DNA of 64,000 nt from Octopus vulgaris. Its lineage: Eukaryota. Numbering within the stretch: the stretch's first letter is position 1; every line of letters begins with the position of its first letter. The DNA is taken from NCBI GenBank assembly GCA_951406725.2, contig OX597836.1, forward strand, positions 3,472,001 to 3,536,000, in the 5' to 3' direction. Under the pieces are notes generated by a model that worked only from the letters and a program-made list of their open reading frames with translations, searched no databases and was not told the DNA's origin. A program made the position numbers and the translations under genes. Below are positions 61,684-62,700 of the stretch, piece after piece.

Positions 61684-62700
61684 TGGCTTCTTCTATCGTC
61701 TGGAAGATAATATTTTGCAATATCCTTTATTAATTTTTTTCCTATTGTTATCATTGCGACTACTACTGTGTTCTTATTCATTTTATCATTACTGTTATCA
61801 TTATTGTTGTTATTATTATTGCTGTGAGCTGTTTGCGTCTTCATGTCGCTCCGCCGATTTTAAGTTTTTAACGAAGCAAAACTGAGGAAAATATATCTAT
61901 TGTTTTGATAATTTTCCAAGAAAGTCCCTCCATCCTGAAATGCGTTTGATGTCTGCCCAATAACGGCAGAGGCATGTTGTCTGTGATTTCAGGACAATTT
62001 TATTTTCGTTTGTTTTTGTTTTTTTTTCTGTTCCTGTTTACATTCAAGATGTCTTCTCTGATAAAGAAACACTCATAAAAACTGAGAACATGGACAAACT
62101 TACACTGAGAAAATACCAAGAGGTAAAACCAAAACTAAATCTAATTAAACATGACCTTTCTAAATAATATTGAAGTTTTAACATCTGAAGCAGATAATGT
62201 CAACTGCAAACCATGTGGTTAAATAGCAAAATACAAATTCTTCAATACGAAAAGAATAAACACGTAAGATTTTTACGTTTTTGTTTTTGATTTTGTTTTT
62301 TAAGCAACGCAAGCATGACTTATAATTCGTTCGCTACTGTTGCTGCTGAGAGAGAGAGGACATAAAAATGTGGAGAATAGATTTACGTGGCGGATATATG
62401 TTACCTAAAAAAATACACCCCTGTCTGAGTAATATATAATTAGGAGTAATGTCACATGAGTCGCAACTCTGAAAACACTGGCTGTTTCTATGTGACCTCA
62501 AAGTCACTATTAAAGGTGTCTTCTTCACATGTAATGGTAGGGAAACAGATCACAGCAACAATACTAACAACAATAATAATAGTATTGATGAAAAGAATAA
62601 AAAGAACTGTAATAGTAGTATTCGTAACGATAGCAAAAGAAAAAATAAAATTAATAAAAGGATTTACAGAATCTTATCTTCCAGACGATAGAAGAAGCCA
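61684..62700. repeat. Long inverted repeat, arms 61684-61834 and 62543-62700
   Basis: The outer 27 bp are perfect reverse complements (tggcttcttctatcgtctggaagataa); the rest of the arms align with scattered substitutions and small indels. Confidence 0.92.
62049..62122 (+). CDS. Candidate 74-nt internal coding exon (DVFSDKETLIKTENMDKLTLRKYQE)
   Basis: ~45-nt pyrimidine tract + AAG acceptor, GAG|GTAAAA donor, exactly one open frame (phase 1 to 0). Confidence 0.55.

Follow-up and report, generated by a model that had tools for sequence, protein, structure and literature searches.

The inverted repeat at 61684-62700 of the 64,000-nucleotide stretch of Octopus vulgaris DNA analyzed here (the window) is probably an old inverted duplication confined to a single locus, whose arms are now decaying neutrally. 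A one-off local copy-back, by template switching or repair, would have duplicated about 155 bp across a 0.7-kb gap, leaving arms that were perfect at first and that would since have diverged without selection. Template switching leaves single inverted repeats, and those described in a great ape study are, like the repeat examined here, reverse-complement copies of nearby DNA at one locus that start out perfect and then decay (PMC7954356). The switches in that study span tens to hundreds of nucleotides, and a 155-bp copy across 700 bp exceeds, in our judgement, most short-range template switches; as the origin of the present arms the mechanism is presumptive. If either strand is transcribed, the arms would be predicted to zip into a duplex of roughly 130 bp (about -150 kcal/mol). 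Such a duplex would passively serve as an ADAR substrate, and might incidentally reduce how often an exon in the loop is included, with no selected switch involved. Features of the locus are listed in Table 1.

Table 1. Features of the inverted repeat and its surroundings. Positions are relative to the window; a strand of "." denotes an unstranded feature.
Feature	Position	Strand	Description
Left arm	61684..61834 (151 bp)	.	Complex outer part; inner part AT-rich, simple-repeat-like
Right arm	62543..62700 (158 bp)	.	Reverse-complementary to the left arm
Perfect outer helix, left half	61684..61710	.	Pairs with 62674-62700
Perfect outer helix, right half	62674..62700	.	Pairs with 61684-61710
Loop between arms	61835..62542 (708 nt)	.	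Single copy except for a 41-nt low-complexity match
Weak outer extension of the repeat	61675..61683	.	5/9 match 62701-62709
Exon candidate, 74 nt	62049..62122	+	Phase 1 start, phase 0 end; 24 complete codons
Acceptor side of the exon candidate: polypyrimidine tract, weak AAG	62000..62048	+	Sequence, splice score
GT donor of the exon candidate (GAG/GTAAAA)	62123..62128	+	Sequence
Nearest multi-exon genes found	173000-190000 and 242000-254000	- and +, respectively	DCTN6 and antizyme-like exons

An earlier description of the locus from the letters alone (the sequence-only reading) had reported complementary arms with perfect outermost 27 bp around a loop of about 710 nt, and this geometry was reproduced. 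Alignment by blastn paired 61684-61834 with 62700-62543 at 80.2% identity over 162 columns (E 2e-34 within the window), the loop measured 708 nt, and the outermost 27 bp were perfect in the core alignment, which comprised 130 Watson-Crick pairs, 17 mismatches and 6 gap events. The local score between the arms was 189, compared with 31.5 +/- 5.0 (maximum 47) for 200 dinucleotide shuffles. A perfect run of 27 is expected with a probability of 0.18 anywhere in the arm and of 0.017 at an end, the latter value not being corrected for the way alignments terminate at matched positions. The weak extension beyond the outer ends rises to 6/9 matches if the letter of a related organism (C, below) is used at 62703. 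The AT-rich inner ~100 bp resembles decayed triplet repeats, and mutation may be faster there. Just upstream of the repeat, at 60825-61212, opposed simple-repeat arrays, (AAT)n(GAT)n followed by (ATT)n(CAT)n(ATT)n, form a potential hairpin; such opposed arrays are common in the region.

RNAfold predicted paired arms in the minimum free energy and centroid structures alike. The duplex energy is -149.9 kcal/mol on the + strand and -145.7 kcal/mol on the - strand. This difference lies within that produced by simulated neutral decay (mean 0.2, sd 12.5), in which 36% of 300 runs were as low. G-U and A-C mismatches, which had been read as a feature of the + strand RNA, are both present, but the core alignment holds five of each and favors neither strand. 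A search of Rfam returned nothing in the loop at E<=1 and only sub-threshold matches otherwise, to a TA run and to a 40-nt AT-rich piece of the left arm.

The copy number of the arms bears directly on their origin. A search of the 2.8-Gb genome with 141 bp of the repeat matched the two arms and nothing else, as did an arm 22-mer with one mismatch allowed. With three mismatches allowed, a 26-mer from the outer end gave two matches in 2.8 Gb, both of them the repeat's own arms, and a 26-mer from the inner end gave one match genome-wide. In the same genome search the loop matched only itself, apart from the low-complexity piece in Table 1. Closer by, 664 kb (the window with 400 kb upstream and 200 kb downstream) was scanned, and the blastn-detected part of each arm was covered only by the other arm, in agreement with the sequence-only reading that the arms are unlike the local SINEs. 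The scan yielded ten low-copy inverted pairs (arms of at least 60 bp, gaps below 3 kb), the 61684-62700 repeat included. Identical searches with 26-mers from four of its neighbors gave 781, 3180, 340 and 228 matches, and two of these four are old, with arms only 76-80% alike, indicating that the search detects families of the age of this repeat. It was the only single-copy repeat among the five tested (5/10 in 664 kb), a sample that includes no neutral single-copy inverted repeats from which a background rate could be taken. Since all four controls give 228-3180 matches, the single-copy state indicates that the repeat belongs to no transposon family.

These results weigh on the proposal that the repeat is a foldback or Mutator-like element that captured a host exon. 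Long-TIR foldback, MITE and Pack-MULE elements are built as arm, spacer and arm, with arms of 100-200 bp, and the 61684-62700 repeat shares this anatomy while lacking dispersed copies, a target site duplication (TSD), a TA target and a donor gene. As previously read, no TSD was found: no exact direct repeat of 4-11 bp occurs at offsets of -12 to +3 and -3 to +12 around the ends, although age could have erased one. Within the genome of O. vulgaris itself, the peptide of the exon candidate and the loop DNA match this locus only, leaving the supposed internal fragment without a second, donor locus. Capture of a host exon by such an element is accordingly not supported. In a weaker version, an old long-TIR foldback or Mutator-like element, whether or not it had captured an exon, survives in this single copy. 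That version would draw on the arm-loop-arm anatomy, the TIR-like preservation of the outer ends and the old foldback and MITE elements nearby (arms of 100-210 bp, 70-80% identity). It is very improbable and largely refuted: at a divergence of about 12%, most copies of equal age should be caught by a search allowing three mismatches in 26, yet neither the arm ends nor the loop turned up elsewhere in the genome, all four neighbors tested gave at least 228 matches, and the repeat, unlike young foldbacks, does not sit in a TA run. The sequence-only reading had taken single-copy arms as a sign of an RNA structure and many paired copies as a sign of a transposon. The arms are single copy, but a local inverted duplication predicts the same.

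Several mobile elements were observed in the surrounding DNA. A young foldback element at contig positions 3445747-3446381 (window-relative -26253 to -25619) lies in a TA run and has 212-bp arms that are 98.6% alike; its 26-mer is the one with 228 matches genome-wide, many of them in head-to-tail arrays with a period of about 493 bp that flip orientation within a locus. It belongs to a foldback family with tandemly amplified arms. Three more long-arm foldback or MITE families are represented at window-relative positions -316753, -341476 and 127734 (781, 3180 and 340 matches, respectively), and the ends of the 3180-match family are what we take to be mariner-like. Remnants of Tc1/mariner-type transposases occur at 51224-51621 of the window (weak HTH matches) and at L039:7044-7481 (DDE_3, E 3e-9). 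An exon-like open frame of 131 nt with a strong donor, at 16592-16722 on the + strand, directly follows a SINE-like repeat and had no match in Pfam or the ESM Atlas.

In order to compare the repeat with other octopods, Logan contigs of four organisms (C, D, E and F) were used, all single contigs at depths of 2.5-19. The left arm is present in C (from 61716), E and F. The right arm was recovered in C, on a contig that also spans the loop and the larger part of the left arm, and falls outside the recovered contigs of D, E and F, so that both partners of a pair can be seen within one organism only for the reference genome and C. Identity to the reference across the region is about 98% in C and 94-95% in E. 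At 0.126, the two arms are about twice as distant from each other as the reference genome is from E (0.058), implying under a neutral clock that the repeat predates the split from E. The contigs of C and F join an arm or its flank to the loop in the reference orientation, giving no support to the idea of an invertible segment. Within the loop, 62336-62530 carries 12 substitutions relative to C in 195 bp while none is listed at 62041-62335; five of the substitutions, at 62366-62424, are common to C and E and hence specific to the reference genome. This cluster is either a divergent haplotype or a mutation cluster.

The same alignments bear on the main rival to neutral decay, namely that a selected long-range duplex in + strand pre-mRNA places the 74-nt exon in a loop and controls its inclusion. 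Since an exon of 74 nt is frame-shifting, the duplex would be a switch for unproductive splicing, possibly tuned by ADAR in the A-C/A-U-rich stem, and retention of the outer 27-47 bp alone may suffice. This is an unlikely reading, though one with several points in its favor. The arms end 214 nt upstream of the acceptor and begin again 420 nt downstream of the donor, they are predicted to be about 12-16% unpaired in the + strand ensemble, and the perfect outer helix shows no change in any of the relatives seen. Against it stand the lack of strand bias described above and the pattern of substitution. In E, the left arm has 3-5 listed changes in 101 bp, compared with 31 in 558 bp of the loop outside the exon (Fisher P 0.46-1.0), and in C the right arm has 2 listed changes in 158 bp, compared with 12 in 502 bp of the loop (Fisher P 0.54). 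By sequence comparison, then, the arms do not appear to diverge detectably more slowly than the loop, at the low power afforded by few substitutions.

Five listed changes fall at paired sites of the core alignment (61725, 61741, 61773, 61780 and 62660). Position 61725 changed in E, and 61773 and 62660 changed in C; at 61741 the reference genome and C differ from E and F, and at 61780 the reference genome differs from C, E and F. In each case the lineage inferred to carry the change ends up with a non-pair, and G-U is never produced. At 61734, organism E has three additional bases, which close a gap in the alignment to the right arm; at this 3-nt gap, as at 61741 and 61780, pairing has been lost in the reference genome and retained in relatives. 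The compensatory changes that the sequence-only reading had proposed looking for in other octopods were thus absent among these few substitutions (0/5 keep pairing), with E and F seen on the left arm only. One candidate pair was considered, as the changes at 61725 in E and at 62660 in C affect the two partners of one pair, a coincidence with P 0.02-0.06. Organism F shares most of the variants of E yet has the reference base, a C, at 61725, making two independent breaks a simpler account than one compensation, and the compensatory pair was disfavored. Taken together, the balance of G-U and A-C mismatches, the equal pairing of the two strands, the rates in the arms and the pair-breaking changes give no sign of selection on the helix in the sequences compared, with low power. 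The outer 27 bp may differ from the rest: no change is listed there in E or F (left arm) or in C (right arm), which would happen by chance with a probability of about 0.2-0.3, and in combination with the perfect run at the end (P 0.017) this makes a short selected helix possible.

Any role of a helix in splicing depends on the exon candidate in the loop. Its AG at 62047-62048, its GT at 62123-62124 and its single open frame are present, but the acceptor is a weak AAG. The claim that it is the best exon candidate in the window was not reproduced: with a crude score combining splice sites and codons it reached 13.7, about rank 20-21 in the window and rank 170 of 1110 bins in 664 kb. On an earlier version of the score, two real exons of the dynactin subunit 6 (DCTN6) gene scored about 15 and the candidate 14.7. 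As small real exons score no better, the score neither proves nor excludes the candidate. With 170 bins in about 358 kb of unique DNA, candidates that score equally well are spaced about 2.1 kb apart on average, and the probability that a 708-nt loop contains one by chance is about 3 in 10.

Evidence for coding came from organism E, in which 3 of the 4 listed changes in the exon are synonymous (P 0.025-0.059) and no indel is listed inside it. This bias suggests, at the level of sequence, real coding constraint, and it is a point for a selected duplex around the exon as well as for a constitutive exon. The last exon base is an A in E, weakening the donor, which counts against the exon and against a selected duplex around it. 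Furthermore, constraint on the encoded protein and use as a poison exon are separate claims, of which the synonymous bias backs only the former. The exon peptide was found in no annotated protein of 25-81 or 82-2000 aa in the protein database, a result that a rarely included exon would fit. A control query of the same kind, a DCTN6 exon, was found at 100% in O. vulgaris proteins, although the database is incomplete in that the exact sequence of the neighboring PLAT protein is also absent from it. Searches of the ESM Atlas, Pfam and PDB sequences with the peptide found nothing, its own genome returned only the self match, and 1.84 billion representatives (50%) gave no match to this 30-aa query of low power. 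An LR.YQE motif in the peptide is reminiscent of a RIG-I/Dicer-like helicase. Such a host gene was rejected, given that no Walker A, DExH or other helicase motif was found in a credible + strand exon in 200 kb downstream, that the contig has no ResIII match, and that D and E have Q in place of the motif's L. Overall, the exon candidate is tentatively regarded as possibly, though not probably, real; otherwise it is a chance AG...GT open frame.

A host gene was sought in the surrounding DNA. No partner exons of convincing quality were found on the + strand in about 575 kb around the candidate, and a Pfam search with 290 of the 1601 best coding-like stretches from -400 kb to +176 kb revealed no host gene: besides one match below threshold, it recognized only a PLAT gene that lacks introns and the remnant of a DDE transposase. 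This too stands against a selected duplex around the exon. The region has the look of a gene desert or of a giant intron. The nearest multi-exon genes found (Table 1) are DCTN6, identified by a 100% match between exon and protein, and one with antizyme-like exons, presumably those of ornithine decarboxylase antizyme. The PLAT gene, at window-relative 120140-122020 on the + strand, is an intronless open reading frame of about 627 aa with a PLAT/LH2 domain (Pfam E 1e-8), a signal-peptide-like start, a Ser/Thr-rich stalk and a hydrophobic C-terminal segment. A literature search, hampered by the absence of a gene name, found no paper on this locus.

These findings also constrain the reading in which the candidate is a real constitutive exon, belonging to an unannotated gene or to one encoding more than 2000 aa with huge introns, and the repeat is accidental and tolerated, with at most some skipping or editing noise as its effect. 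The synonymous bias in E and a score within the range of the small DCTN6 exons are consistent with this; proteins above 2000 aa lie outside the 25-2000 aa that were searched, and the missing PLAT protein indicates that the database lacks some readings of the region. The reading is nonetheless rather improbable, given the absence of a convincing + strand exon series from about 575 kb, the lack of a match among the 1.84 billion representatives (with the low power of a 30-aa query) and the expectation that a strong duplex around a frame-shifting constitutive exon would be selected against. In a combined account, a one-off non-transposon duplication in an ancestor of these octopods would have made the ~130-bp stem, and the selected outer helix would act as an ADAR-tunable switch, concealing the frame-shifting exon from every annotation; the repeat would then be a regulatory RNA structure at an early stage of its existence. 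This account, too, is improbable.

Drosophila laccase2 is reportedly a case in which inverted arms promote back-splicing, and several better documented systems allow closer comparison. If functional, the 61684-62700 repeat would by analogy act like an exon-flanking pair of reverse-complementary matches. As in ZKSCAN1 and HIPK3 (PMC4201285), C. elegans zip-2 (PMC8330042) and the intronic inverted Alus that serve as a comparison case for back-splicing and exon-skipping (PMC2533698), its inverted arms are longer than 30-40 nt and lie within a few hundred bases of splice sites. The present arms differ in that they are single copy and are not copies of a SINE or transposon. Back-splicing of a lone 74-nt exon, raised in the sequence-only reading, is unlikely, given that ZKSCAN1 exons no longer than 400 nt circularized inefficiently or failed to circularize in that work, 74 nt being far below the sizes that circularized well (PMC4201285); circRNA levels are also reported as low overall in octopus (PMC9699675). 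Skipping is a separate matter, as reverse-complementary matches can drive it without back-splicing, according to the zip-2 study (PMC8330042).

The closest parallel to a looped-out exon is provided by the pairs of conserved complementary regions (PCCRs) around the poison exons of BRD2 (exon 3b) and BRD3 (exon 5b), where, as here, complementary stretches that do not derive from transposons flank a small frame-disturbing exon, a candidate one in the present case (bioRxiv 10.1101/2020.05.05.076927; PMC10789245). Complementarity on both sides of the exon, a PCCR trait, is present at this locus provided that the exon candidate is real. The BRD2/BRD3 poison exons beneath paired complementary regions (PMC10789245) and the lower inclusion of looped-out exons reported in the preprint (bioRxiv 2020.05.05.076927) offer precedent for a selected duplex. 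However, PCCRs are defined by above-background conservation and backed by compensatory change, editing and minigenes (bioRxiv 10.1101/2020.05.05.076927; PMC10789245), whereas the arms at 61684-62700 are a long duplicated block with no excess conservation detected, around a putative exon in a putative host gene.

Editing in octopus is reported to occur mostly in introns and 3'UTRs (PMC9699675). As a decaying duplication, the repeat would be ordinary, one more potential ADAR substrate among this intronic and 3'UTR editing. The feature that keeps the locus of interest is its single-copy state, unlike that of every neighboring inverted repeat tested. Were the exon and a selected helix both true, the repeat would record, with a date, how an exon-looping RNA structure arose independently of transposons in the most actively editing animals, and its 1-kb size would make it a compact minigene for the control of splicing by editing and structure.
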